32,000 nucleotides of DNA from Megasphaera elsdenii DSM 20460. Its GTDB lineage: Bacteria > Bacillota > Negativicutes > Veillonellales > Megasphaeraceae. The notes below the pieces were generated by a model. That model did no database searches and was not told the DNA's origin. It saw only the letters and a list, made by a program, of their open reading frames with translations. Each line of letters begins with the position of its first letter. The stretch's first letter is position 1. Below, piece after piece: positions 3,825 to 32,000 of the stretch. The stretch is taken from the NCBI RefSeq assembly GCF_003010495.1, contig NZ_CP027570.1, forward strand, positions 1,440,001 through 1,472,000, written 5' to 3'. The position numbers and the translations under genes were made by a program.

Positions 3825-3898
3825 GTGGTTCGTAGCTCGTGTTTCGTGGCTAAATTTAAAACCATCCGCTAGCTACTAACAACTAGCTACTAACAACT
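3825..3898. repeat. composite intergenic repeat: GT-heptads, then TAAATTTAAAA palindrome, then AC/CTA heptads
   Basis: gtggttcgtagctcgtgtttcgtggc TAAATTTAAAA ccatccgctagctactaacaactagctactaacaac. The array is 7-nt periodic (ctagcta ctaacaa ctagcta ctaacaa). Confidence 0.7.
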
Positions 3899-3936
3899 AA
3901 AAAAAGGTCTTGTCGCACTGCGACAAGACCTTTTTT
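3899..3936. terminator. rho-independent terminator (serves the minus-strand thiolase; A/T tracts on both sides)
   Basis: aaaaaaa GGTCTTGTCGC act GCGACAAGACC tttttt. The 25-nt hairpin spans 3906-3930. Confidence 0.8.
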
Positions 3937-3951
3937 ACATGAGAGATGAAA

Positions 3952-5133
3952 TTAGTCGATGTTTTCTACGACGCAAGCCGTACCCTGGCCGCCACCGATG
4001 CACAGTGTAGCCAAGCCGTATTTGCCGCCGACTTCTTTCAAGCCATAGAGCAAGGTTACGAGGATACGAGCGCCCGATGCACCAATCGGATGGCCGAGGG
4101 CGATAGCACCGCCATGGATGTTGACTTTATCCATATCGAAGCCGAGTTCACGGCAGCAATATACAGCCTGAGCTGCGAAAGCTTCGTTAGCTTCGACGAG
4201 GTCGAGGTCTTTGACTTCGAGGCCAGCTTTAGCCAATGCTTTACGGGAAGAAGGAACAGGGCCGGTACCCATGATGGACGGATCGACGCCAGCGGAAGCA
4301 TAGCTTACGACTTTAGCCATCGGTTTGAGGCCGAGTTCTTTCGCTTTATCAGCGGACATAACTACGAATGCAGCTGCGCCGTCGTTGATGCCGGAAGCGT
4401 TACCAGCAGTAACTGTGCCGCCTTTTTTGAAGGCCGGTTTCAATTTAGCAAGGCCTTCCATGGTCGTGCCTTCACGCGGGAATTCGTCTGTATCGATGAC
4501 GACGTCCTGTTTTTTCTGATGAACCGTTACCGGAACGATCTGAGATTTGAATGCGCCGCTCTTGATAGCTTCGCAAGCTTTGACCTGAGAACGGACACCA
4601 AGTGCATCCTGGTCTTCACGAGTGATGCCGAAGCGTTCAGCAACGTTTTCAGCCGTGATGCCCATATGATAGTCATTGAATGCATCCCAGAGGCCATCTT
4701 TGATCATGGTATCGACGAGGACACCGTTGCCCATACGATAGCCATAACGAGCTTTAGGAACAGCGAAAGGAGCCATGGACATGTTTTCCATGCCGCCTGC
4801 TACGATGACGTCAGCGTCGCCGGCTTTGATCATCTGAGCTGCCAAGGATACGCAGCGGAGACCGGAACCGCAGACTTTGTTGACCGTAAGAGCCGGTACT
4901 TCGATAGGCATGCCAGCTTTAATCATAGCCTGACGAGCCGGGTTCTGGCCCTGAGCAGCCTGAAGGACGTTGCCCATTACGACTTCATCGACGTCTTTAC
5001 CTTCGATGCCAGCACGTTTGAGAGCTTCTTTAATGACAACAGCGCCGAGTTCTACAGCCGGTGTGTTTTTGAAACCGCCACCGAATTTACCAATTGCTGT
5101 ACGGCAAGCGCTTACGATAACTACTTCTTTCAT
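3952..5133 (-). CDS. acetyl-CoA C-acetyltransferase (thiolase II), paralog 1
   Basis: Track ORF 3952-5142. ATG 5133 ([19 protein letters not shown]) follows AAGGAG. Thiolase signatures are NKVCGSG (active-site Cys), GHPIGASG and CIGGGQG. Confidence 0.95.
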
Positions 5134-5208
5134 TGGAATCACTCCTTGGATAATTTTTTACGTATGAAATAGGTGCCGGCGAATCAGTATGAGAGGATAC
5201 ACCGGGCG

Positions 5209-5344: not shown

Positions 5345-6529
5345 TTACAGACGTTCTACGATGATAGCCGTGCCCTGGCCGCCGCCGATGCAGAGGGAAG
5401 CCAGACCATATTTACCGTTGATTTCCGGTTCAGCCAATGCGTAGAGCAAGGTGACGACGATACGAGCGCCGGAGCAGCCAATCGGATGGCCGAGGGCGAT
5501 AGCGCCGCCGTGGATGTTGACTTTGTCCATGTTGAGGCCGAGTTCGCGGACGCAGTATACGGACTGAGCTGCGAAAGCTTCATTCAATTCGATGAGGTCC
5601 ATCTGGTCGACGTTCATGCCGGTCTTCTTCATGACTTTGCGGACTGCCGGAACAGGGCCAGTACCCATGATTGCCGGTTCAACACCAGCCGAAGCCCAGT
5701 CGATGATGCGAGCCAGCGGTTTGATGCCGAGTTCTTTAGCTTTTTCAGCGGACATTACGACAACAGCAGCTGCGCCGTCGTTGATGCCGGAAGCGTTACC
5801 AGCGGTAACTGTGCCGTCTTTGATGAAGGCCGGACGGAGTTTAGCCAGTGTTTCCATGGTGCAGTTCGGACGGATGAATTCGTCTTTGTCGACGACGACA
5901 TCGCCTTTTCTCTTATGGATCGTTACCGGAACGATCTGGCTGTCGAATTTGCCTTCCTGCTGAGCTTTGTAAGCCAAGTTTTCAGAACGGCAAGCCAGCT
6001 TATCCTGGTCTTCACGGGTTACACCGAAGCGAGCGGCAACGTTTTCAGCCGTTACGCCCATGTGGTAGTTGTTTTCCGTGCAGAACAGGCCATCGCGCAT
6101 GAGCAAGTCTTCGAGGACGCCGTTGCCCATACGATAACCGCGGCGGCCTTTAGCGATGGAGTAGGGGGCGTTGGACATGGATTCCATACCACCGGCTACG
6201 ATGATGTCAGCATCGCCGAGTTTGATCTGCTGGGAAGCGAGGGAAATGGCACGCATACCGGAACCGCAAAGTTTATTTAATGTGAAAGCAGGAACTTCCT
6301 GAGGAATACCCGAATGAAGGGCTACCTGACGGGCCGTGTTTTCACCGCAGCCAGCCTGGAGTACGTGGCCCATGATGACTTCGTCGATCTGGTCGACAGG
6401 AATACCTGCGCGTTTGATTGCTTCAGTAACAGCAGCTACACCGAGGTCTACCGCGGTGACGTCTGCGAACTGGCCATTGAAACTGCCGATGGCCGTACGG
6501 CAAGCACTTACGATAACAGCATCTCTCAT
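5345..6529 (-). CDS. acetyl-CoA C-acetyltransferase (thiolase II), paralog 2
   Basis: Track ORF 5345-6688. The internal ATG at 6529 ([19 protein letters not shown]) follows AAAGGATGG. Motifs are [15 protein letters not shown] and CIGGGQG. It is clearly homologous to, but diverged from, paralog 1 over the N-terminal stretch I aligned by eye. Confidence 0.95.
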
Positions 6530-6802
6530 TAGAAAAACCATCCTTTCGTGATGTGAAACAAAGTATAGAATAATATAGTATATAAGACTTAGTTGACGGA
6601 GCCGCCGCTTACGCAGCTCCTTGGGGGTTACGCTGAAATGAAGAACTTGAGTTCTAAATTTCACAATCTCCATGCCTATATAGTACATTTTTTCACAAGG
6701 AAATGCAAGAGGAAAATGAATTTTCCCTATGCTAGATAATCATGATAAAGAAAGGGTCAGATGAGAAAAGAATAAAGAGAACGAATAATTTGGTATACGT
6801 AT

Positions 6803-6893
6803 GGTTGGCGGCTAGCAGTCAGCAGCTAGCCGCTCGTAGGGCCGCCCTTTGGGACGGCCCCTACGAACCCCTAGCCACTAGCCCCTAACCACT
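6803..6893. repeat. composite intergenic repeat containing a GC-rich REP-like hairpin and CTAGCC/CTAACC heptads
   Basis: The hairpin is GTAGGGCCGCCC ttt GGGACGGCCCCTAC (6836-6864). It is followed by gaacccc tagccac tagcccc taaccac taaaaaa. Confidence 0.7.
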
Positions 6894-6928: not shown

Positions 6929-6938
6929 CCTATTCCTT

Positions 6939-7019
6939 TTAAAGAAGATGAGCGATGAAACTGTACGAAAGTAAAGCGCCCATGGAGATGATGATTTTTG
7001 CGTCTGCACTTAAATTCAT
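6939..7019 (-). CDS. candidate 26-aa hydrophobic small protein (MNLSADAKIIISMGALLSYSFIAHLL)
   Basis: Hand-translated; not in the track. AAGAGGT lies 7 nt before the ATG (complement of 7017-7019). A strong terminator follows immediately after the stop. Confidence 0.35.
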   Translation of the reverse strand: MNLSADAKIIISMGALLSYSFIAHLL

Positions 7020-7505
7020 AGTTCTTACCTCTTTTCTTCTTTAATATATTGCAAAACTTAATAATTTTAATTATGTATCAGATATTGAATCCGGAAAGCG
7101 GAACTCTTTATCTATAAATATAATATCATATGCGTAAATAAAATCAATAGCCAGAAAATGCAACGACTTGACACCTGTATTACCACAATGCAAATATAGG
7201 CGTTTGAACAGTATAAAAACAGGAAAATGGCCGAAAAATCCTTTTAAATAGAATAAACAAAAGCAAAGGACAAGAAGTGTAAAAGTGAATAAAATAGATA
7301 TTTATTCAAAACAGAAAAATATTAAATTTTACGTTAAAATAAAGTATAAACTTAAAAATAGAAAAATGGTGACTGACAGGCACTAGCGACAGGGCGGGAA
7401 ATGCCTTATAATGGATACAATATCCTTTGATGCCGTGACGTCGTTACGGCTGTCATCAGTAAGTGAAATTATTATATAAATGTTTTATATAGTGGGAGGA
7501 GTATC

Positions 7506-9731: not shown

Positions 9732-9776
9732 ATCCCCTGCATGAAGGTTTCCACCGTCATGCAGGGGATTTTTTTC
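9732..9776 (+). terminator. rho-independent terminator of the rplT operon
   Basis: ATCCCCTGCATGA (9732-9744) pairs with TCATGCAGGGGAT (9757-9769), followed by T7. Confidence 0.85.
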
Positions 9777-9798
9777 TGCAGGGGCTGGCAACTATCAG

Positions 9799-9837
9799 CC
9801 ACGAATCACGAACCACGAATCACGAACCACGAAAAAA
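9799..9837. repeat. tandem 7-nt repeat array (CACGAAT/CACGAAC, 5 units)
   Basis: ccacgaat cacgaac cacgaat cacgaac cacgaaaaaa, directly abutting the terminator hairpin. Confidence 0.8.
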
Positions 9838-9869
9838 GGCGCTGTCTTCATGCGACAGCGCCTTTTTTT
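9831..9869. terminator. bidirectional terminator (serves the minus-strand MFS gene)
   Basis: aaaaaa GGCGCTGTC ttcatgc GACAGCGCC ttttttt. The hairpin spans 9838-9862. Confidence 0.75.
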
Positions 9870-12420: not shown

Positions 12421-12497
<77 letters not shown>

Positions 12498-15322: not shown

Positions 15323-15330
15323 AAACCTGA

Positions 15331-15427
15331 AACATGTGACTGACGGAAGTGGAGTTACCACGGGGAGCATGATTCATACGAGCCGACCGTCTGGGCGAAA
15401 CGTTCCAGAAGTGTCGGTATTTTTTTA
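15331..15427 (+). promoter_or_regulatory. ZTP (pfl-motif) riboswitch with terminator expression platform
   Basis: Conserved blocks are UGACUGACGG, GGAGUUACCACGGGGAGC and CCGACCGUCUGGGCG. Pseudoknot GACGG/CCGUC covaries with the consensus GGCG/CGCC. P1 is CATG/CATG. The terminator 15383-15427 shares CCGTCTGG with the aptamer and ends in T7. The downstream gene is an AICAR transformylase. Confidence 0.8.
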
Positions 15428-15457
15428 TTTTTGCTTAACTATTCAGGAGGAATCACC

Positions 15458-16680: not shown

Positions 16681-16773
16681 TGTTTGGGGTTTGATGTTTG
16701 AAGTTTGATGTAATGGCTTTTAAATTTAAAATCATTTGCTAACTGCTAACCCCTAACTGCTAACTGCTTAAAA
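16681..16773. repeat. composite intergenic repeat: GT-heptads, then TTTTAAATTTAAAA, then GCTAACT heptads
   Basis: tgtttggggtttgatgtttgaagtttgatgtaatggc TTTTAAATTTAAAA tcatttgctaactgctaacccctaactgctaactgc. Confidence 0.7.
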
Positions 16774-16804: not shown

Positions 16805-16816
16805 CACCAATTCCAG

Positions 16817-16900
16817 GCGGGCCGCCCTTTGGGACGGCCCCTACGAACCACGAGTCACGAACTACGAACCACGAGTCACGAGCCACGAACCACGAAACAA
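16817..16900. repeat. REP-like GC hairpin plus CACGA(A/G)N heptad array
   Basis: GGGCCGCCC ttt GGGACGGCCCC (16819-16841), then ctacgaa ccacgag tcacgaa ctacgaa ccacgag tcacgag ccacgaa ccacgaa. Confidence 0.75.
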
Positions 16901-16911
16901 GAGGTGATATC

Positions 16912-24212: not shown

Positions 24213-24306
24213 AGTGGTTAGTGGCTAGTTGTTAGTGGTTAGTCGATGGCTTTAAATTTAAAAACCTTCACTAAAAACTACAAACTGCAAACTTAATACT
24301 CAAAAA
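24213..24306. repeat. composite intergenic repeat: GT-heptads, then TTTAAATTTAAAAA, then AAACTNC heptads
   Basis: gtggttagtggctagttgttagtggttagtcgatggc TTTAAATTTAAAAA ccttcactaaaaactacaaactgcaaacttaatactc. Confidence 0.7.
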
Positions 24307-24337
24307 GAGGCTGTCTTAATGCGACAGCCTCTTTTTT
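24307..24337 (+). terminator. rho-independent terminator after yebC
   Basis: GAGGCTGTC ttaatgc GACAGCCTC followed by TTTTTT. Confidence 0.8.
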
Positions 24338-24380
24338 ACTAGCCCCTAGCTCCTAGCCACGAACCACGAGCCACTAATTC
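24338..24380. repeat. CTAGCNC/CACGA heptad array distal to the terminator
   Basis: actagcc cctagct cctagcc acgaacc acgagcc actaatt. Confidence 0.6.
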
Positions 24381-24503
24381 CCAAACCGTTGTAATAACAA
24401 CAGATTCCCTCCACTATCCATGGTATACTACGTTCAGAAGTTGAGAGAAAGCTCACTCAGAGATAAGATAAAAGTTGTCCACATACTTTAGGAGGTAGTT
24501 ACT

Positions 24504-25948: not shown

Positions 25949-26316
25949 GGCGTCCTGTGGGGCGCCCGCCGGTCGCAGTTTGCAGGTCGCCGGCCGCTTC
26001 GGACGCAGAGGCGGCTTCGCCGCGACAGACTCATGATTGTATTACGATCGTGTACCACTGGTCATAAATTTCGGCTGTATCCAGGATTCACAGCGGGACG
26101 CCTTAACAGGACGTCCCCTACGAAATCGCATACAGGCGATGAAAATGAATGCCGGCGCAGTCCGCAGGCGGCAGGTCGCCGCGGTCCATGGGACCGCATC
26201 GTAGGGGCCGTCCCGAAGGGCGGCCCGGCTCTCCTTATAGGAGAGCTGTCAGCGAAGCTGACTGAGAGGTTGCTTTTAAATTTAAAACCATCCGCTAGCC
26301 AACTAACAACTTAAAA
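25949..26316. repeat. about 370-bp GC-rich repeat cluster (several REP-like hairpins, a GCAGGTCGCCGG element, a TTTTAAATTTAAAA palindrome and CTAAC heptads)
   Basis: Hairpins are GGGACG..CGTCCCCTACGAA (26095-26124) and GTAGGGGCCGTCCC gaa GGGCGGCCC (26201-26226, the reverse complement of the 6836/16819 element). It also has GTCAGC gaa GCTGAC, the palindrome at 26274-26287, and the 52-nt element 25982-26033, which is repeated at 26921-26972. Confidence 0.75.
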
Positions 26317-26914: not shown

Positions 26915-27086
26915 GTGAGCGCAGGTCGCCGGTCGCCTCGGAATCAGATGCGGCTTTGCCGCAACAAACTCAAACTGACAACGGCGCTTCGGGAAACCCT
27001 CAGTGCGTAGCGGGCCGCCCGTCGTTGCCATTCGTCCAGGTAACCGTTCTGTACTTGACGTGTTAGGATATTTGGGCGGCCCCTCG
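26915..27086. repeat. GC-rich repeat block ending exactly at the left edge of the AT-rich island
   Basis: 26921-26972 matches 25982-26033 at 44 of 52 positions (hand alignment). GCGGGCCGCCC and GGGCGGCCCCTCGTATC are REP-like fragments. Confidence 0.7.
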
Positions 27087-27090
27087 TATC

Positions 27091-28710
27091 ATGATATATG
27101 GTATTTACAATGCAGGTAAAAGCAGTATCATCAATGAACTTATTCGTGAAGATAAAGCGAAAGTACAGGATATACCGACGACTGATAGCGTGGATTCTTA
27201 TGAATGGAATGGATACACCATTGATGACACACCGGGAGTTGGTGCTCCGATGAAACATGAAGAAGTAACTCAGGCACATTTAAAGCGAGCTGATATCGTG
27301 CTTTTTGTGATGAGTACGACTGGAGCTAATGAATTAAAACAAAATTATGAGCGAATGAAAGATATTGTAGATGCTGGTAAAAAACTAATTATTGTTTTAA
27401 ATGATAAAAATAGTGATTTAGAAACTAATGACAATGCGATTCAACTGATTAAGATGAAAGTTATCGAACACATGGAACAAGTCGGGATAGGGCAAGCTAA
27501 CGCTAACTATCATTTTGTTGTTGTCAATGCTCGCAGAGCTCATAAGGGAAGAATTGAGGATAAAATTCGCTTGTGGCAAAAGTCCCACATGGAAGAGTTA
27601 GAGCAGGTAATGCTTACAGAATTAAAACGGGCGGGTGGCTTTGAAGTTCTACAAAGAGCTATTCGGGATGTGGAACATTATATGGAACAAGCCATTGGCA
27701 TGCTGAGTAAAGTAGAAGGAGATAAACAGATAGAAGTACTTCATGAGGTTCTGGTCAATCTTCAAGAAAAAGGGAAACAAATGAAAGAAAACTTGAACCG
27801 AACAATCACTCTTGGCACTCAGCATTTAGGGACTACCTTACCGCAATTGATTTGGAATGAAAGTCAGCAAGGAGAAAAGAATGTCGAAGAGGACGTTGTA
27901 AATCAATTAATTAAAAAACATGAATCGCAGCTCATTGAAAAGATAGACAAAGAGCTATCTTTTCAATTTGAAAATATATGCCACGATGTGTCTGACTTAT
28001 TACAAGAACAATTAGAAGCTAATGTTTTGAAGGATTCACAAAATTTGCATTGTGTAGAAGTAGAAAAGGGAGGCGTGCAAGAATCTTCTTTGCAGGAAGT
28101 ATTAAATAAAGTACAGGAAATTTGCAATGCTGAAAATGCCATTACTGCCGGGAATTTTGATTCCTCTGAAGTAGATACCAACATTGGAGAAGATGTACTA
28201 AAGGCAGTTGCTAAAGGGAAGGCATTGGGCGAAATCGGTAATAGTGTAGGAAAAGCTTTGTTAGGTACGCAGCTGGGATCTATTTTGGGTAAATCAACGT
28301 TAGGGAAATTGATTCTTCCTTGGTTTCCGCCGGCTGAGGTTATCATGACTATTGTAGGTATTGCTCAACTCTTATTTGGTGATCATGGCGAAGCTAAACG
28401 AAAGCAGCAAGAAGCTGAAATGCAAAATGAAAGAATGCGACAAATCGCAGTAGCCAAACAACAAGCCAGAGAACAGTTACAGCAAAATTTTCAATATTAT
28501 GCGGATGACATGAGAAATAAATTATTAGCAGCTGTATTTTCTAATATTGAATTACGTATGAAAATTTTGAGAGAACCAGTTGTAACAGAGATTCAGCAAT
28601 TAAAATCAGATACAAAATCTCTAATGACAGATATTGATCAAATGCACCACTTATTAAATGGTTGTGAAGAATTACGTTGTCAAATAACAGATAATAAGCA
28701 GATTTGCTAA
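27091..28710 (+). CDS. dynamin-like / HSR1-type P-loop GTPase with C-terminal glycine-rich hydrophobic hairpin and coiled coils (possibly 5'-truncated)
   Basis: G1 is GIYNAGKSS at residues 4-12, G3 is DDTPG, and an NKxD-like LNDKNSD is present. A long helical middle region is followed by GKALLGTQLGSILGKSTLGKLILPWFPPAEVIMTIVGIAQLLFG, then a Q/E/K/R-rich coiled coil. There is no SD before the ATG, and only 3 residues precede the P-loop glycine. Confidence 0.75.
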   Translation: MIYGIYNAGKSSIINELIREDKAKVQDIPTTDSVDSYEWNGYTIDDTPGVGAPMKHEEVTQAHLKRADIVLFVMSTTGANELKQNYERMKDIVDAGKKLIIVLNDKNSDLETNDNAIQLIKMKVIEHMEQVGIGQANANYHFVVVNARRAHKGRIEDKIRLWQKSHMEELEQVMLTELKRAGGFEVLQRAIRDVEHYMEQAIGMLSKVEGDKQIEVLHEVLVNLQEKGKQMKENLNRTITLGTQHLGTTLPQLIWNESQQGEKNVEEDVVNQLIKKHESQLIEKIDKELSFQFENICHDVSDLLQEQLEANVLKDSQNLHCVEVEKGGVQESSLQEVLNKVQEICNAENAITAGNFDSSEVDTNIGEDVLKAVAKGKALGEIGNSVGKALLGTQLGSILGKSTLGKLILPWFPPAEVIMTIVGIAQLLFGDHGEAKRKQQEAEMQNERMRQIAVAKQQAREQLQQNFQYYADDMRNKLLAAVFSNIELRMKILREPVVTEIQQLKSDTKSLMTDIDQMHHLLNGCEELRCQITDNKQIC

Positions 28711-28797
28711 ATTATTATGTCATCCTTTAGAATACGAGAAAAGTAAATGAATATGTTTTTTGTCTTATAGTATTCTCCCTCCCTGGAAGATAAAATG

Positions 28798-28826
28798 TCT
28801 TGTGGGGGGGATTTTTATGCTATAAT
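28798..28826 (+). promoter_or_regulatory. candidate promoter of the 92-aa/rSAM operon with a G7 homopolymer in the spacer
   Basis: TG-extended -10 (TGCTATAAT; TATAAT at 28821-28826). The -35 is weak (TCTTGT/TTGTGG around 28798-28805). GGGGGGG occupies 28804-28810. Confidence 0.45.
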
Positions 28827-28862
28827 TGGTGCAAATAGAAAACGTGGAAGAAGGTAATCTAA

Positions 28863-29141
28863 ATGCCATTTTATAGTAATGCTGAATTTGCGGAAAAATT
28901 TGTTGAAGAAGTCATGCATTGGTATTGTAGTGATGATCACAGCAATACACAAGAAGAAGTTGCGAGACGTATGACTGATAAATATCATGTTGAATTTACA
29001 GTTAATGATATTAGAGAAATTACACAGTCTACTGGATTTTCTCATCGTATAAAACCGGAAAATTCTAGTAAACAGATAGTCCTACGATTGAGTAAAAATT
29101 TGCGTGATAAAATTGATAAGGCTAATCCACAAAAAAGCTAA
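28863..29141 (+). CDS. hypothetical 92-aa protein, possible small DNA-binding/regulatory protein
   Basis: Track ORF with a GAAGG SD. TQEEVARRMTDKYHVEFTVNDIREI is HTH-like, and the C-terminal KQIVLRLSKNLRDKIDKA resembles an RHH beta-strand/helix start. This assignment is weak. Confidence 0.6.
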   Translation: MPFYSNAEFAEKFVEEVMHWYCSDDHSNTQEEVARRMTDKYHVEFTVNDIREITQSTGFSHRIKPENSSKQIVLRLSKNLRDKIDKANPQKS

Positions 29142-29179
29142 TCTACCAAGTTGTTAAATGTTTACATGGAGGAAGTTTG

Positions 29180-30490
29180 ATGGGAATTAGCATAAGGTTG
29201 AACCAAGATATTTTTTATCGTAAATATGATAACAGTTATTATGTTTGGTCAACTTATAATCAAAGCGTTCAAACAGTCAATGAAATGGCGTTTGACATTA
29301 TTTCTAATTTGACTAAATCTTATATGCAAGACGATGAATTAATTGATAAATTAGCTTCGATTTATGATTTAACAACTGAAGACATTCAATGTATACTTGA
29401 TTTTTTATATGAATTAGAACGCATGAATATTGTTACAATAAAGGAAGACAATATCAGGCAGGGGTCTCCCGGAGATTTGAGTAACGAAATTGTTCGTTTA
29501 ACGGCAGAAAATCATCTTCTATATCAGGTCATGATTGAACTGACTTATGATTGTAATGAACGGTGTAAACACTGCTATGTAGAAACTTTTGATAAAAAAC
29601 AAAAACTTACTACATCAGAAATTTTTAATATTATTGATCAACTCAATGAAATGAATGTAGCTGATGTGGCTTTTAGTGGTGGTGATGTTTTTACTCGTCC
29701 TGATACCTTGGATATCCTTCAGTATGCTGTTGATAGTAATTTAATGGTAACAGTATTTACTAATGGCATAGCGTTGACAGATGATATGATAGAACGTATG
29801 TCGAAAATGGGATTAAAATGCGTCCACTTTAGTATATATGGAAGTAACGCTGAAACTCATGACGGTATTACAGGCGTACATGGATCATTTCAAAAGACAA
29901 TGCATTCCTTAAAAAATTTTAAAGCATTAGGCACTCCTGTCAATATGAAAGTTGTTTTAATAAAAGACAATATTCAAGAATATGATAATATTATGAACAT
30001 GGCTCAAGCCTTGGGAATCACGACACAGGTATCGACCAGTATCAGGCCAACTATGATAGGTGATAAAAGGCCAACTTTTCTTAGGGCTGATTTAGAAGAT
30101 ATTAAATATGTTATGCAACAAGAAGAAATTAAGCATCCTGAAGATAAAAATGTTTCTATTAATTTGAAACCTCAGACGATTTGCAATGCAGGTTTTAATT
30201 CCTTGACGATTAACCCTTACGGAGAAGTTTTTTTATGTATTTCTTTTGGGAAAAGCCTCGGCGATTTGAGAACAGAAAAGTTAGAAAATATATGGCATCA
30301 TTCTCCGATATTAAAAAAATGGAGACAATATAGATTTAAGGATATAGAGAAATGTTCTACTTGCGATTTATTGCAATATTGTAATTTCTGTCCTTCACAA
30401 GCTTACTTAGAAAATGGTGGGAATTGGCATAAGGCTTATGATGAGGCTTGCAAACTTGCAGCTCTTCAAAAGACAATTCTTAATCATTAA
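29180..30490 (+). CDS. radical SAM / SPASM-domain peptide-modifying enzyme with N-terminal RRE (PqqD-like) region
   Basis: GGAGGA lies 6 nt before ATG 29180. The CX3CX2C motif sits in ELTYDCNERCKHCYVE, with FSGGDVF also present. The C-terminal SPASM pattern is CNAG...GEVFLC...CSTCDLLQYCNFCPSQAY. About 105 N-terminal residues precede the rSAM core (YKLNESA-type: FYRKYDNSYYVWSTYNQSVQTVNEMAFDII). Confidence 0.85.
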   Translation: MGISIRLNQDIFYRKYDNSYYVWSTYNQSVQTVNEMAFDIISNLTKSYMQDDELIDKLASIYDLTTEDIQCILDFLYELERMNIVTIKEDNIRQGSPGDLSNEIVRLTAENHLLYQVMIELTYDCNERCKHCYVETFDKKQKLTTSEIFNIIDQLNEMNVADVAFSGGDVFTRPDTLDILQYAVDSNLMVTVFTNGIALTDDMIERMSKMGLKCVHFSIYGSNAETHDGITGVHGSFQKTMHSLKNFKALGTPVNMKVVLIKDNIQEYDNIMNMAQALGITTQVSTSIRPTMIGDKRPTFLRADLEDIKYVMQQEEIKHPEDKNVSINLKPQTICNAGFNSLTINPYGEVFLCISFGKSLGDLRTEKLENIWHHSPILKKWRQYRFKDIEKCSTCDLLQYCNFCPSQAYLENGGNWHKAYDEACKLAALQKTILNH

Positions 30491-30516
30491 AGAATAATCG
30501 AAAGGAGGGAGCGTCA

Positions 30517-30639
30517 ATGAAAGATAAAAAGAAATTTGTAAATCCTAAGATTATGAGTAAAACTAAATATCGTACTGCACAAAGCAGACCTTGTGCTCAT
30601 AATTTCAGCAATTGTACGTATAATCTGTATGTTAATTGA
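30517..30639 (+). CDS. candidate RiPP precursor peptide A (40 aa): MKDKKKFVNPKIMSKTKYRTAQSRPCAHNFSNCTYNLYVN
   Basis: Hand-translated and below the track cutoff. AAAGGAGGGAG lies 6 nt before the ATG, 27 nt after the rSAM stop. It aligns without gaps to peptide B. Confidence 0.7.
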   Translation: MKDKKKFVNPKIMSKTKYRTAQSRPCAHNFSNCTYNLYVN

Positions 30640-30656
30640 TGTAAGGAGAGATTATT

Positions 30657-30776
30657 ATGGAACAGAAGAAACAATTTTGTTTACCCAAAGCTTCTGCAGC
30701 GCAAAAATATGATATTGTTGTTGGAGCACGGTGTGCTCATTATATGACACATTGTAGTCACGCTAATACCAACTGA
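30657..30776 (+). CDS. candidate RiPP precursor peptide B (39 aa): MEQKKQFCLPKASAAQKYDIVVGARCAHYMTHCSHANTN
   Basis: Hand-translated. TAAGGAGAG lies 7 nt before the ATG. It shares M1, K4, K5, F7, P10, K11, K17, Y18, C26, A27, H28 and C33 with peptide A at identical positions. The DNA tgtgctcat is identical in both. Confidence 0.7.
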   Translation: MEQKKQFCLPKASAAQKYDIVVGARCAHYMTHCSHANTN

Positions 30777-30801
30777 TATATGTACTAATCATAGAAATAA
30801 T

Positions 30802-30845
30802 GACCATGAGCTTACGATTTTTTGTTATAAGCTCATGGTTTTTTA
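30802..30845 (+). terminator. rho-independent terminator after the precursor genes
   Basis: GACCATGAGCTTA (30802-30814) pairs with TAAGCTCATGGT (30828-39), followed by TTTTTT. Confidence 0.8.
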
Positions 30846-30879
30846 TCATATATTTTTGAAAAAGAGAAGGGAGAATAAT

Positions 30880-31188
30880 ATGGATCCGTATATTGTTACT
30901 GAGCAAGTAATAGACCTTATTATCGAACAATTGGCCCCAAGTGCCGATGAAATAGACAATATTCGGTTAGATACATGTTTGGTGGGTGATTTAGGCGCCG
31001 ATTCATTAGATATAGTAGAACTTACGGGAGCATTTATGGAAACTTTTGATATTTTCATTTCAGATGAAGAAGTTCGATCACTTGTATATAAAGATTACAT
31101 GGGTTCAGATATAGAAATACAGAGTTTTTTAGGTCTTATTATGTATAAAATAGAAGAAAGGGAAAGGCTTGAAAAAGAAGAAAAATAA
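30880..31188 (+). CDS. acyl/peptidyl carrier protein-like protein (102 aa)
   Basis: Track ORF 30835-31188. ATG 30880 follows AAGGGAG. It has the carrier-protein signature LVGDLGADSLDIVEL, with the DSL phosphopantetheine serine in a helix II context. Confidence 0.7.
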   Translation: MDPYIVTEQVIDLIIEQLAPSADEIDNIRLDTCLVGDLGADSLDIVELTGAFMETFDIFISDEEVRSLVYKDYMGSDIEIQSFLGLIMYKIEERERLEKEEK

Positions 31189-31237
31189 TTAGGGCTGATG
31201 AAAAAAATGATATAATATAAATAGATGGCATGGTGAA

Positions 31238-31273
31238 GGTATTGGATAATATTGAAAAATATTATCCAATACC
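31238..31273. repeat. perfect 16-bp-stem inverted repeat with GAAA loop (terminator or protein-binding site)
   Basis: GGTATTGGATAATATT gaaa AATATTATCCAATACC, read directly. Only a weak T-run follows it. Confidence 0.6.
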
Positions 31274-31346
31274 TATTTGTGATATTCGAATTTAATAGCG
31301 GGCCTTTATATTTATGATTTAGGTTTTCGAAGATGCTTTGCATGAG

Positions 31347-31368
31347 ATTCACAATAATTATTGTGAAT
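31347..31368. promoter_or_regulatory. perfect 22-bp palindrome ATTCACAATAATTATTGTGAAT (candidate operator upstream of ecsC-like gene)
   Basis: Read directly. It lies 74 nt upstream of ATG 31442. Confidence 0.4.
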
Positions 31369-31441
31369 GACAGAATTTGTCGTCATCATCTGCTATGATA
31401 TAGGTAAAGGAAGAATTTAGATGTTAGGGTAAGGTGATATT

Positions 31442-32000
31442 ATGGATGTAACGGCTATGGGAAAAGCTTTGTCAATGTCTTATGATAAGGCCCTCAGCGG
31501 CATTGCCGGTATGAAGGGCGCCGAGGCGTTGGCGGCGGAATATATGGCGACTGGCGATGATTTGGAGAAACAGGTGGATATGTTGATCCGCAATCAGGTC
31601 ATCAAGTGCGGTGCATCTGGCTTTTTGACGAGTTTAGGCGGCGCTATTACGCTGCCCGTGGCTTTGCCGGCCAATGTCCTCAGTGTGCTGTATATGCAGC
31701 TTCAGATGATTGCGGCCATTGCTCATATGGGCGGCTATGATTTGCAGAGCGACCGCGTGCGGACGCTGGTCATCGCCTGTCTTTGCGGCAACCAGCTCAA
31801 GGAAGTCTTGAAACAGGCTGGCATCAAGGTGGGGACGACGTTGACGGCTAAGGCGATTCAACGGTTGTCGGCAGTACTCTTCAACCGCATTAATCGGACG
31901 GTTACGATGCGTTTGTTGTCGCGTTTCGGGACGAAGAGCGCCATTAATTTAGGGAAGGCCATTCCCCTCGTTGGCGGTCTGATTGGCGGCGGCTTCGATG
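31442..32000 (+). CDS. EcsC-family protein (N-terminal part; continues beyond the window)
   Basis: Hand translation: MDVTAMGKALSMSYDKALSGIAGMKGAEALAAEYM...GFLTSLGGAITLPVALPANVLSVLYMQLQMIAAIAHMGGYDL...GKAIPLVGGLIGGGFD. It is open to the window end, and G+C returns to the core level. AAGGTGA SD. Confidence 0.7.
   Translation, partial: MDVTAMGKALSMSYDKALSGIAGMKGAEALAAEYMATGDDLEKQVDMLIRNQVIKCGASGFLTSLGGAITLPVALPANVLSVLYMQLQMIAAIAHMGGYDLQSDRVRTLVIACLCGNQLKEVLKQAGIKVGTTLTAKAIQRLSAVLFNRINRTVTMRLLSRFGTKSAINLGKAIPLVGGLIGGGFD

Follow-up and report, generated by a model that had tools for sequence, protein, structure and literature searches.

What kind of element is the AT-rich segment that interrupts a G+C-richer part of the Megasphaera elsdenii DSM 20460 genome? 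The window analysed here is the whole 32,000-nucleotide stretch from position 1,440,001 to 1,472,000 of contig NZ_CP027570.1 (forward strand), and the segment lies near its right-hand end (Table 1). An initial annotation, made from the letters alone, had seen in it an island inserted between core genes, devoid of recognisable mobility genes, whose GTPase, small DNA-binding-like protein, radical S-adenosylmethionine (rSAM) maturase, precursor peptides and carrier protein made up no cassette known to it. M. elsdenii, which also serves as a probiotic, is a key lactate utiliser in the rumen and in the gut of pigs and humans. We think it probable that the segment is a composite and partly decayed accessory region, a leftover trimmed by deletions, situated in a hotspot of the M. 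elsdenii genome. Its left part is, by sequence comparison, the 3' end of a mobile six-gene cassette of dynamin-like GTPase and rSAM genes, and its right part a separate module, putatively for a ribosomally synthesised and post-translationally modified peptide (RiPP).

Table 1. Features of the AT-rich segment and its borders (window coordinates; SD, Shine-Dalgarno sequence; ORF, open reading frame).
Feature	Position	Strand	Basis or remark
GC-rich REP-like repeat copy	26915..27084		its end is the left junction of the island
Module 1, 3' remnant of six-gene dynamin-like GTPase/radical-SAM cassette	27082..28785	+	homology to L025 and L121
5'-truncated LeoA-type dynamin-like GTPase ORF, 539 aa	27091..28710	+	Pfam MMR_HSR1, Dynamin_N
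Module 2, separate unit	28786..31191	+	own promoter-like site; p92, rSAM, two peptides, ACP-like gene
Extended -10 promoter-like element (TGCTATAAT)	28818..28826	+	sequence reading; upstream of 92-aa gene
p92, predicted all-helical protein, 92 aa	28863..29141	+	ORF; AlphaFold model
Putative peptide-modifying radical-SAM/SPASM maturase, 436 aa, RRE-like N-terminus	29180..30490	+	Pfam Radical_SAM, SPASM, Fer4_12
Putative precursor peptide A (pepA), 40 aa: MKDKKKFVNPKIMSKTKYRTAQSRPCAHNFSNCTYNLYVN	30517..30639	+	strong SD
Putative precursor peptide B (pepB), 39 aa: MEQKKQFCLPKASAAQKYDIVVGARCAHYMTHCSHANTN	30657..30776	+	SD; FxxPK...Y...CxH...C...N layout as pepA
ACP-like phosphopantetheine-binding gene, 102 aa from SD-preceded ATG	30880..31188	+	PF00550
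AT-rich spacer, 171 nt, window-type arrangement	31192..31362		right-hand replacement junctions 31191 and 31363
Terminator-like perfect palindrome, 17-bp stem, after ACP-like gene	31237..31274	+	terminator scan
EcsC-family gene start	31442..32000	+	G+C recovers here; variable region, not core

Composition, edges and host locus

The G+C content of 27087-31440 is 0.338, and 455 other 4354-bp windows taken upstream have a mean of 0.527 (sd 0.032, minimum 0.464), which places the segment at z = -5.9. A 500-bp profile gives 0.30-0.40 across 27001-31500, mostly 0.47-0.62 over the preceding 26 kb and 0.554 in 31501-32000. At 100-bp resolution G+C drops from 0.60 (26987) to 0.34 (27087) on the left and climbs from 0.35 (31390) to 0.54 (31440) on the right, so that both edges are sharp to 50-100 bp. 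Third-position G+C (GC3) is 0.18-0.29 in the six island genes, compared with 0.55-0.71 in nine upstream genes and 0.43 in the EcsC gene, which starts at 31442; normalised tetranucleotide usage correlates at r = 0.42-0.47 between island and flanks and at r = 0.93 between one flank half and the other. The abrupt drop and the A/T-rich codon usage described by the initial annotation thus hold under windowed G+C, GC3 and tetranucleotide profiles. The edges that it had placed at 27087 and 31440 are as sharp as it claimed; the left one has to be moved, since the compositional edge coincides with a homology breakpoint at 27082/27083. A second, smaller AT-rich dip lies at ~6930-7505 (G+C 0.30 in 7001-7500) and is apparently non-coding, with no ORF of at least 60 aa.

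ORF and domain scans recovered the same gene content as had been listed, namely a GTPase, a 92-aa ORF, an rSAM/SPASM protein, two peptides and an acyl carrier protein (ACP)-like protein. Pfam and NCBIfam scans of the window proteins found no integrase or transposase domain in the island, no flanking direct repeats were found around it, and the only tRNAs in the window are two tRNA-Ile genes (at 12421 and 12554), neither of them in the island; domain and tRNA scans agree with the claim that integrase, transposase and tRNA attachment site are lacking. By the marks of a horizontal island, the segment has atypical composition and is absent from close relatives at this locus, and it has no integrase, tRNA site or direct repeats.

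The locus was compared in one genome per species, with the upstream hemerythrin-domain protein as query, and 12 Megasphaera species were returned; L031, the GTDB representative of M. elsdenii, was not usable for this purpose, its contig stopping 0.6 kb past the hemerythrin gene. M. intestinihominis, Megasphaera sp. WILCCON 0056 and MGYG-HGUT-00612 (~88% nucleotide identity) have the hemerythrin gene, Sel1 and the repetitive extragenic palindromic (REP)-like repeat in common with the window up to exactly 27084, and beyond that base carry wholly different genes, such as those for Rpn/PD-(D/E)XK-like proteins. The sister species also hold a NERD/helicase pair between hemerythrin and Sel1, and EcsC was not seen at this locus in those examined. 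In UMGS1114 only 2.1 kb separate hemerythrin from the carboxyltransferase, with one small secreted protein and an insertion sequence (IS) fragment between them, and more distant Megasphaera species retain only DUF1858, p197 and hemerythrin. Because its content differs in every species examined, the interval from hemerythrin to methylmalonyl-CoA carboxyltransferase is, on this comparison, best regarded as a hypervariable, defence-island-like hotspot that has Sel1 and EcsC inside it. The description of the segment as inserted between core genes must be given up, since Sel1 and EcsC belong to that variable interval. That the segment is accessory and compositionally foreign is borne out by the divergence of sister Megasphaera from the window after 27084, and carriage by all close relatives, which the initial annotation had named as a sign of ancestry, was not what we found among the Megasphaera species.

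The GC-rich REP-like repeat that had been noted to the left of the island belongs to a real repeat family: 26921-26972 and 25982-26033 are 85% identical, and copies bracket the Sel1 gene. The homology of this repeat to sister species loci L030 and L034 ends exactly at 27084, and further REP-like copies in L029 and L034 stop at the same base. Related motifs lie at 6839-6866, 16815-16846 and 26199-26230, and such repeats are met again between genes both in the window and in sister genomes.

On the right, the full EcsC protein (from L003) matches the PADLOC defence candidate PDC-S29 (E = 1.8e-80), and a downstream WYL protein matches CRISPR-associated WYL models in PADLOC. At L003 12263-15968, EcsC is followed by two small ORFs, the WYL regulator and an AAA-ATPase/PDDEXK_9 protein. 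Because these genes adjoin, the right flank resembles a defence-island neighbourhood.

The truncated GTPase gene and the separable units

The GTPase ORF has a P-loop at residues 4-11. Because the PADLOC models for LeoA (E = 1.1e-36, residues 3-503 aligned with profile positions 63-528 of 559) and LeoBC (E = 3.5e-32) both match it, we take it to be a bacterial dynamin-like protein. Its closest homologues (93%, 91%, 58% and 50% identity) are 594-598 aa long, and the window ORF begins at their internal Met56 and so has 55 residues fewer (homologue sequence ...KPRIMIYGIYNAGKSS; full-length homologue across the Met56 start ...LKNFKPRIMIYGIYNAGKSS). Its ATG has no SD and is preceded by an in-frame stop 24 nt upstream, unlike the rSAM, pepA, pepB and ACP-like genes, each of which has a GGAGG-type SD (the ACP-like gene when read from ATG 30880). 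At the left junction the REP end (...GGGCGGCCCCT) runs directly into CGTATCATG on the GTPase side, and the reading continued past the same ...GGGCGGCCCCT is CGTATCATGATATATGG. At this very point the sister species run on as REP, and L121 and L025 extend upstream as GTPase coding sequence. Window 27082-28785 aligns with L025 8157-9860 at 92.8% nucleotide identity, starting 156 nt inside the L025 gene, and the homology stops 75 nt after the GTPase stop, at window 28785. The initial annotation was right to distrust a GTPase start without an SD, given that homologues of 594-598 aa turn the window start into an internal Met56 abutting the REP-like end; its suggestion that the original 5' end had been removed at the REP element is upheld by the comparison of the junction with L025, L121 and the sister species.

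The full-length GTPase is the last gene of a six-gene cassette in L025/L026 and L027/L028. The order of this cassette is a 306-aa GTPase, a 138-140-aa membrane/coiled-coil protein, a LeoBC-like GTPase of ~598 aa, an rSAM/SPASM protein (best matches DynA- and anSME-like, below cut-off), a 580-aa B12-binding rSAM protein and finally the LeoA-like GTPase of 594-598 aa. It occupies L025 1907-9785, L027 1893-9794 and L121 2-5718, is AT-rich and lies at different loci in different Megasphaera genomes; ~38%-identical relatives of its last GTPase are found across the Selenomonadaceae. The partner LeoBC-type GTPases are absent from the window and present in L025, L027 and L121. In L025 the cassette stands alone at another locus as a 9-kb island (G+C 0.32-0.40, flanks 0.56-0.60), and the tetranucleotide signature of the L025 flanks correlates with that of the window at r = 0.90. 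In L027, a lower-GC relative, the cassette is directly upstream of WYL and the carboxyltransferase, which is the homologous hotspot.

The three-gene LeoABC locus of enterotoxigenic Escherichia coli is named for LeoA, LeoB and LeoC only (PMC4159319). The window GTPase matches LeoA and LeoBC over nearly its full length, and its full-length homologues are likewise clustered with two further Leo-like GTPases; the window copy differs in having lost the N-terminal 55 residues and the partner GTPases, and the source cassette differs from LeoABC in that it interleaves dynamin-like genes with rSAM/SPASM and B12-rSAM genes. To our knowledge the LeoABC locus contains no rSAM genes. A cassette of three dynamin-like GTPases and two radical-SAM proteins was not found in a literature search on LeoA, dynamin-like proteins and radical SAM, and none of the papers that this search returned has the term 'radical SAM'. 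This cassette is the least familiar item met in this work, and it lies beyond the window except for its truncated last gene.

Other strains have fuller and smaller versions of the locus. M. elsdenii DSM 20460 (HE576794.1), two more NCBI assemblies and numerous metagenome assemblies from gut and rumen encode rSAM and GTPase proteins identical to those of the window (~200 identical-protein blocks for the rSAM protein, ~234 for the GTPase), and the order Sel1, GTPase, 92-aa gene, rSAM, peptides, ACP, EcsC is the same in all places shown. L121, a 198-kb scaffold, begins inside the gene for the preceding 598-aa GTPase and continues with the rSAM/SPASM gene, the B12-rSAM gene and a full 594-aa GTPase gene; L122 begins inside the last GTPase gene. 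The two further GTPase genes upstream are complete in L025, and L121 is incomplete there. Both L121 and L122 then carry p92, rSAM, pepA, pepB and the ACP gene, followed by an opposite-strand transposase, five more genes and EcsC. Window 27082-31191 aligns with L121 4090-8203 as one block at 94.6% identity, and the two become homologous again at window 31363 (L121 18112). Compared with L121, the window is missing everything upstream of GTPase codon 53 as well as the 9.9-kb block between ACP and EcsC; in L121 and L122 these 9.9 kb replace the spacer 31192-31362, which is kept in L123. The transposase and five genes (538, 760, 514, 341 and 662 aa) lie at L121 8236-17952, and the window has none of them between 31191 and 31363. 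Of the five products, those of 538 and 760 aa are dynamin-like and the one of 662 aa contains Sel1-like repeats.

The smaller version is seen in L123 and L124 (311-kb and 286-kb contigs), which have Sel1, REP, IS fragments (rve_3, HTH_Tnp_1), the last 63 ACP codons, the window-type spacer and EcsC; window 31041-32000 is 96.6% identical to this type. At L123/L124 7986-10192 the IS fragments take the place of the GTPase, p92, rSAM and both peptide genes and of the 5' part of the ACP gene, an arrangement that makes these strains look like natural knockouts of the entire module. The lack of mobility genes, a puzzle to the initial annotation, ceases to be one, because the edges of the window segment are deletion or replacement junctions and IS elements stand at the equivalent places in other strains.

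The rSAM-plus-peptide unit is likewise found on its own. Outside the M. elsdenii-type loci (L041-L043) it stands alone or with an XRE-type helix-turn-helix gene upstream (L021, L022, L044-L066), and in ~20 such loci it is accompanied by no GTPase and no adjacent ACP gene, L055 having a weak ACP-like match ~4 kb away. The pair lies among unrelated, mostly housekeeping genes in most other genomes. In L021 it forms an AT-rich insert (0.25-0.33) beside a tyrosine recombinase gene in a genome of G+C 0.53, and in L022 the rSAM homologue is near a relaxase and a RelB/YafQ pair; the AT-rich cassettes of L021 and L025 taken together have a G+C of 0.25-0.40 within flanks of 0.53-0.60. Because L025 has the six-gene cassette alone and the rSAM-plus-peptide unit stands alone elsewhere, cassette and RiPP module are, on the sequence comparisons, separable units that would have been juxtaposed in an ancestor of the M. 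elsdenii group. The idea of one unrecognised five-gene cassette accordingly falls, its GTPase being the last gene of a separate six-gene cassette and its rSAM-plus-peptide pair occurring elsewhere without GTPase or adjacent ACP.

We place high confidence in the following structural history, as read from the aligned loci. Deletion or illegitimate recombination would have joined the REP-like end to codon 53/54 of the last gene of the cassette, leaving a GTPase ORF that starts at an internal Met and has no ribosome-binding site. Module 2 is a separate unit with its own promoter-like site. The right edge is a second junction, at which other strains have an additional 9.9 kb (IS plus a second dynamin-like cluster) and still others have only the last 63 ACP codons left, next to IS fragments. 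The truncated GTPase would most likely be a relic. Apart from this history, the low G+C would reflect an origin in low-GC Firmicutes, and it is retained in each genome in which higher-GC flanks enclose these cassettes.

The RiPP module and other features

The extended -10 element upstream of p92 is the likely start of the module-2 operon; a generic promoter scan also gave a 9/12 site at 28704-28733. The maturase matches Pfam Radical_SAM (E = 6e-24) and SPASM (PF13186, E = 1.8e-11). Its CX3CX2C motif reads C125-N-E-R-C129-K-H-C132 and is invariant in 21 family members, and the SPASM region has seven conserved cysteines (335, 353, 392, 395, 401, 404 and 424). Among its best 25 of 70 NCBIfam matches (the weakest of the 25 at 66.9 bits) it lies far below the cut-off of every model; the top matches are TIGR04053, AhbD, NirJ2 and MftC, all below cut-off, and AlbA (NF012164, residues 35-409) and StsB are matched with 94.5 bits (cut-off 850) and 89.6 bits (cut-off 625). 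The family is sparse, with 45 matches in 5.8 billion clusters, and its closest members from beyond the M. elsdenii group show 47% and 44% identity. Of the solved structures, SkfB (PDB 6EFN) is the best match to the single sequence (1e-14), and a profile of 21 family members matches SkfB (1e-29), PqqE (5e-25) and CteB (1e-18, profile positions 18-430) and aligns with 8VPO from position 13. Three relatives (P0009, P0021 and P0037) carry PqqD (PF05402). The collinear CteB alignment and these weak PqqD matches suggest an N-terminal RiPP precursor recognition element (RRE) in the maturase. With a dN/dS of 0.22 relative to the L043 variant, the maturase appears to be under purifying selection.

Two other proposals for this gene were set aside. 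A TTG start had no match in an exact-protein look-up, and ATG 29180 is the start on record. A viperin-like role (PADLOC pVip, E = 1.5e-17) was rejected because the alignment is confined to the generic radical-SAM core (residues 118-267).

A peptide of 33-50 aa is encoded directly downstream of the rSAM gene in ~20 family loci and upstream of it in two. Their common layout is F/Y-x-x-P-x-Φ, a Tyr eight residues further along, then C-x6-8-C with a short tail after it; in their alignment the second Cys never varies, and Pro, Tyr and the first Cys each reach a conservation of 90% or more. There are two cysteines in pepA and three in pepB, one of the latter in the leader. Compared with variant loci of 93-95% identity, pepA has three synonymous and no non-synonymous differences, its protein being identical, and pepB differs from L043 by one synonymous and no non-synonymous change. 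No NCBIfam match was found for pepA or pepB, nor for eight family peptides at E <= 10, and pepA and pepB have no Pfam match either. The precursors thus appear as a conserved, uncurated family, F/YxxPxΦ…Y…C-x6-8-C. Of the features expected of an rSAM RiPP maturase, CX3CX2C, a seven-Cys SPASM region and a co-located short precursor are present, and no description of this cluster was found in the literature on Megasphaera with radical SAM, RiPP, sactipeptide or ranthipeptide.

In the mechanism that we propose, the putative N-terminal RRE of the maturase would bind the conserved leader (F/Y-x-x-P-x-Φ ... Y), and 5'-deoxyadenosyl radical chemistry, together with the SPASM auxiliary clusters, would link the two cysteines (C-x6-8-C) with acceptor carbons, yielding a small peptide with thioether bridges, of sactipeptide or ranthipeptide type. 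Such a thioether-crosslinked product is the most likely function of the peptides as judged from these motifs, and we hold its chemistry, including the assumption that the modified residues are cysteines, with medium confidence. The sactipeptide synthases SkfB and AlbA also have short Cys-bearing precursors; the window maturase differs in being only a distant relative of AlbA, by the score given above, and the window differs in having no ABC transporter, protease or immunity gene.

The ACP-like protein matches PF00550 at 22.0 bits (cut-off 20.8), 13 NCBIfam ACP models (all below cut-off) and AcpP structures (~1e-7), and keeps the DSLD serine (GADSLD); it would on these grounds be a true but divergent carrier-protein homologue. 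Against L043 it shows 35 non-synonymous and 10 synonymous differences (dN/dS 0.88). In the L121/L043 variant (P0169) the serine is lost (GAFYLD), other strains have shortened forms of 73, 78 and 63 aa, and P0171, P0172 and P0174 are truncated. Its sole relative outside the group is an 81-aa ACP of 51% identity, it has no match to TIGR04069 at E <= 0.1, and in no other rSAM-family locus does it adjoin the rSAM gene, the one weak ACP-like match in L055 being ~4 kb away. Because of this near-neutral evolution, the serine loss, the fragments and the missing TIGR04069 match, the gene is probably a decaying, dispensable passenger, and a role as core pathway component was rejected on its dN/dS, the serine loss and its absence from other loci. 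Decay after insertion, which had been raised for this island, is seen here in the dN/dS and in the serine-less and truncated forms of other strains.

The 92-aa protein p92 has no significant match in Pfam, NCBIfam, PADLOC or PDB sequences and only nine relatives among 1.84 billion representatives, which conserve a core TQxxVA...KY.V..T.NDIREITQS.GFSH.IK. Its AlphaFold model has five helices (mean pLDDT 75), and a fold search against the PDB gave nothing significant (best E = 1.3); its dN/dS against the L043 variant is 0.47. Motif, position and analogy to the XRE genes of L021, L022 and L056 permit the guess that it is a regulator, possibly of helix-turn-helix type.

Elsewhere in the window, intergenic runs of 7-nt tandem units (CCACGAA/CTAGCTA-like) lie at 9776-9847, 16825-16903 and 24334-24391, and also at 3851-3903, 16721-16773 and 24253-24305, frequently next to TAAATTTAAAA motifs and to hairpins that resemble terminators. 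A ZMP/ZTP riboswitch (Rfam RF01750) at 15326-15403 on the + strand scores 59.1 bits (gathering score 39) and lies upstream of an ORF at 15431. Two tandem paralogous thiolase-like genes (3946-5172 and 5345-6688) have 70-79% nucleotide identity over ~1.2 kb; the distance between the copies is 1396 bp.

Alternative readings and significance

Several points weigh against the composite, partly decayed region that we favour. The truncated GTPase ORF is intact, with a low dN/dS (0.14-0.16) when set against full-length copies; the window-type copies do not differ from one another and so say nothing about selection after truncation. Some GTPase function may persist from the internal Met. The direction of change is set by parsimony only: an L121-like ancestor may have undergone deletion, or L121 may have gained sequence. 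The window maturase itself has no significant PqqD/RRE match in Pfam. A donor lineage could not be named, the closest non-elsdenii rSAM proteins (44-47%) being AT-rich inserts in metagenomic contigs. Finally, since no protease, exporter or immunity gene is present, a role as secreted bacteriocin is unsupported.

That last point leads to the alternative that survives best, although we consider it unlikely, namely that the rSAM-plus-peptide pair is intracellular (SCIFF- or cofactor-like, or a component of phage defence) and not a natural-product cassette. No protease, transporter or immunity gene is found here, nor is any recognisable beside the pair at eight other loci, where the neighbours are known from unannotated N-terminal sequence and no family-library scan was made. 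The two-gene layout is as minimal as that of the SCIFF/ranthipeptide system (CteB, PDB 5WGG; TIGR03974, precursor TIGR03973). Like the window with its putative RRE, SCIFF has an RRE-rSAM-SPASM maturase, collinear over profile positions 18-430, with an adjacent short Cys-containing precursor and no dedicated protease or exporter, and it is scattered in anaerobic Firmicutes. The two differ in that TIGR03974 (cut-off 425 bits) is not among the best 25 of 70 NCBIfam matches of the window maturase, which is not a member; in that SCIFF has a six-Cys motif in ~45 residues and the window precursors have 2-3 Cys, C-x6-8-C and a leader F/YxxPxΦ...Y; and in that the window precursor genes are downstream of the maturase gene. 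An intracellular or defensive role would explain the place of the pair in a defence-island-like hotspot, with LeoA/LeoBC-like dynamins, the PDC-S29 EcsC, WYL and AAA/PDDEXK genes as neighbours here and NERD/helicase and Rpn-like genes in sister species. Elsewhere, however, the pair lies mostly among housekeeping and not defence genes, and the pVip matches cover the generic radical-SAM core alone.

It would also be possible to read the segment as one functional operon of a new kind, with five proteins and two peptides, in which the GTPase and a phosphopantetheinylated carrier assist the rSAM enzyme, e.g. in acylation or tethering of the peptide. We give this only a slight chance. All genes are co-oriented and tightly spaced, the block from GTPase through p92, rSAM and peptides to ACP is kept in both window-type and L121/L043-type loci, and the window ACP has its DSLD serine. 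There is moreover one literature precedent that we found for an ACP-related protein next to an rSAM peptide maturase, the CLI_3235/CcpM system, which comprises a TIGR04068 rSAM, TIGR04066, the ACP-related TIGR04069, a subtilase and an ABC transporter, e.g. SacP23 (PMC10731318) and Roseburia (PMC4573289). The window differs from it as follows: TIGR04068 is not among the maturase's best 25 of 70 matches, the precursors fall outside the CLI_3235 family, no TIGR04066 protein, subtilase or ABC transporter appears in the gene lists of L001-L020, and the ACP is under relaxed constraint (dN/dS 0.88, serine lost in P0169, truncated P0171, P0172 and P0174) with no TIGR04069 match. The GTPase, for its part, is 5'-truncated, has no SD and is the last gene of a cassette that occurs without RiPP genes, and ~20 other rSAM-plus-peptide loci have neither it nor an adjacent ACP. 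On all these comparisons, the RiPP module would work like the minimal RRE-rSAM-SPASM systems, but it falls outside each family with which it was compared (SCIFF, AlbA/StsB and CLI_3235/CcpM).

We regard it as very improbable that the island is the remnant of a prophage, plasmid or integrative element. In its favour, relaxase and RelB/YafQ genes adjoin the rSAM gene in L022, as a tyrosine recombinase gene does in L021; the site in L123 is taken up by IS fragments, and in L121 the ACP gene is followed by a transposase. Against it, a scan of 2.9 million viral contigs with the rSAM family alignment gave no relative, and the island is free of phage, conjugation and integrase genes and is not flanked by direct repeats. 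Searches of known plasmids with the rSAM protein and the GTPase (tblastn) gave matches of at most 30% identity, which are uninformative on the vector. Genomic and defence islands share with the window its atypical composition, strain- or species-specific content, defence neighbours and REP-like repeats and IS remnants at the borders; the window differs from them in having no integrase, tRNA site or direct repeats and in that its edges are secondary deletion junctions and not insertion ends. That the segment is ancestral, its low G+C due to local mutational drift or selection, is barely credible: identical proteins stand at the same locus in all places shown of ~200 M. elsdenii-type blocks, yet the segment is missing there in sister species at ~88% nucleotide identity, the same cassettes are equally low in G+C at other loci and in other genomes, and GC3 (0.18-0.29 vs 0.55-0.71) and tetranucleotide usage (r 0.42-0.47) set it apart.

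Returning to the composite region that we favour, one bolder extension deserves mention, decidedly unlikely as we take it to be, in which the maturase and its peptides would represent a RiPP class not yet described, found in anaerobes of gut and rumen, whose crosslinks have a new topology; in Megasphaera it would be functionally tied to the surrounding dynamin-like GTPase/rSAM clusters. If this were true, the modified peptide might be made, sensed or delivered by a system that remodels membranes, for defence or for the release of vesicles, and the window would contain the wreck of a new multi-component system and not two unrelated passengers.

As a genomic phenomenon the segment is an ordinary, well-resolved variable island in a hotspot, and current understanding is not overturned by it; what is corrected is the reading of the island as one mysterious cassette. 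It offers a base-resolved example of how cassettes are gained, joined and eroded at one hotspot, with three stages preserved among strains. The maturase with its 33-50-aa peptide would constitute a small two-gene RiPP family that is directly expressible and whose precursors have no curated model.

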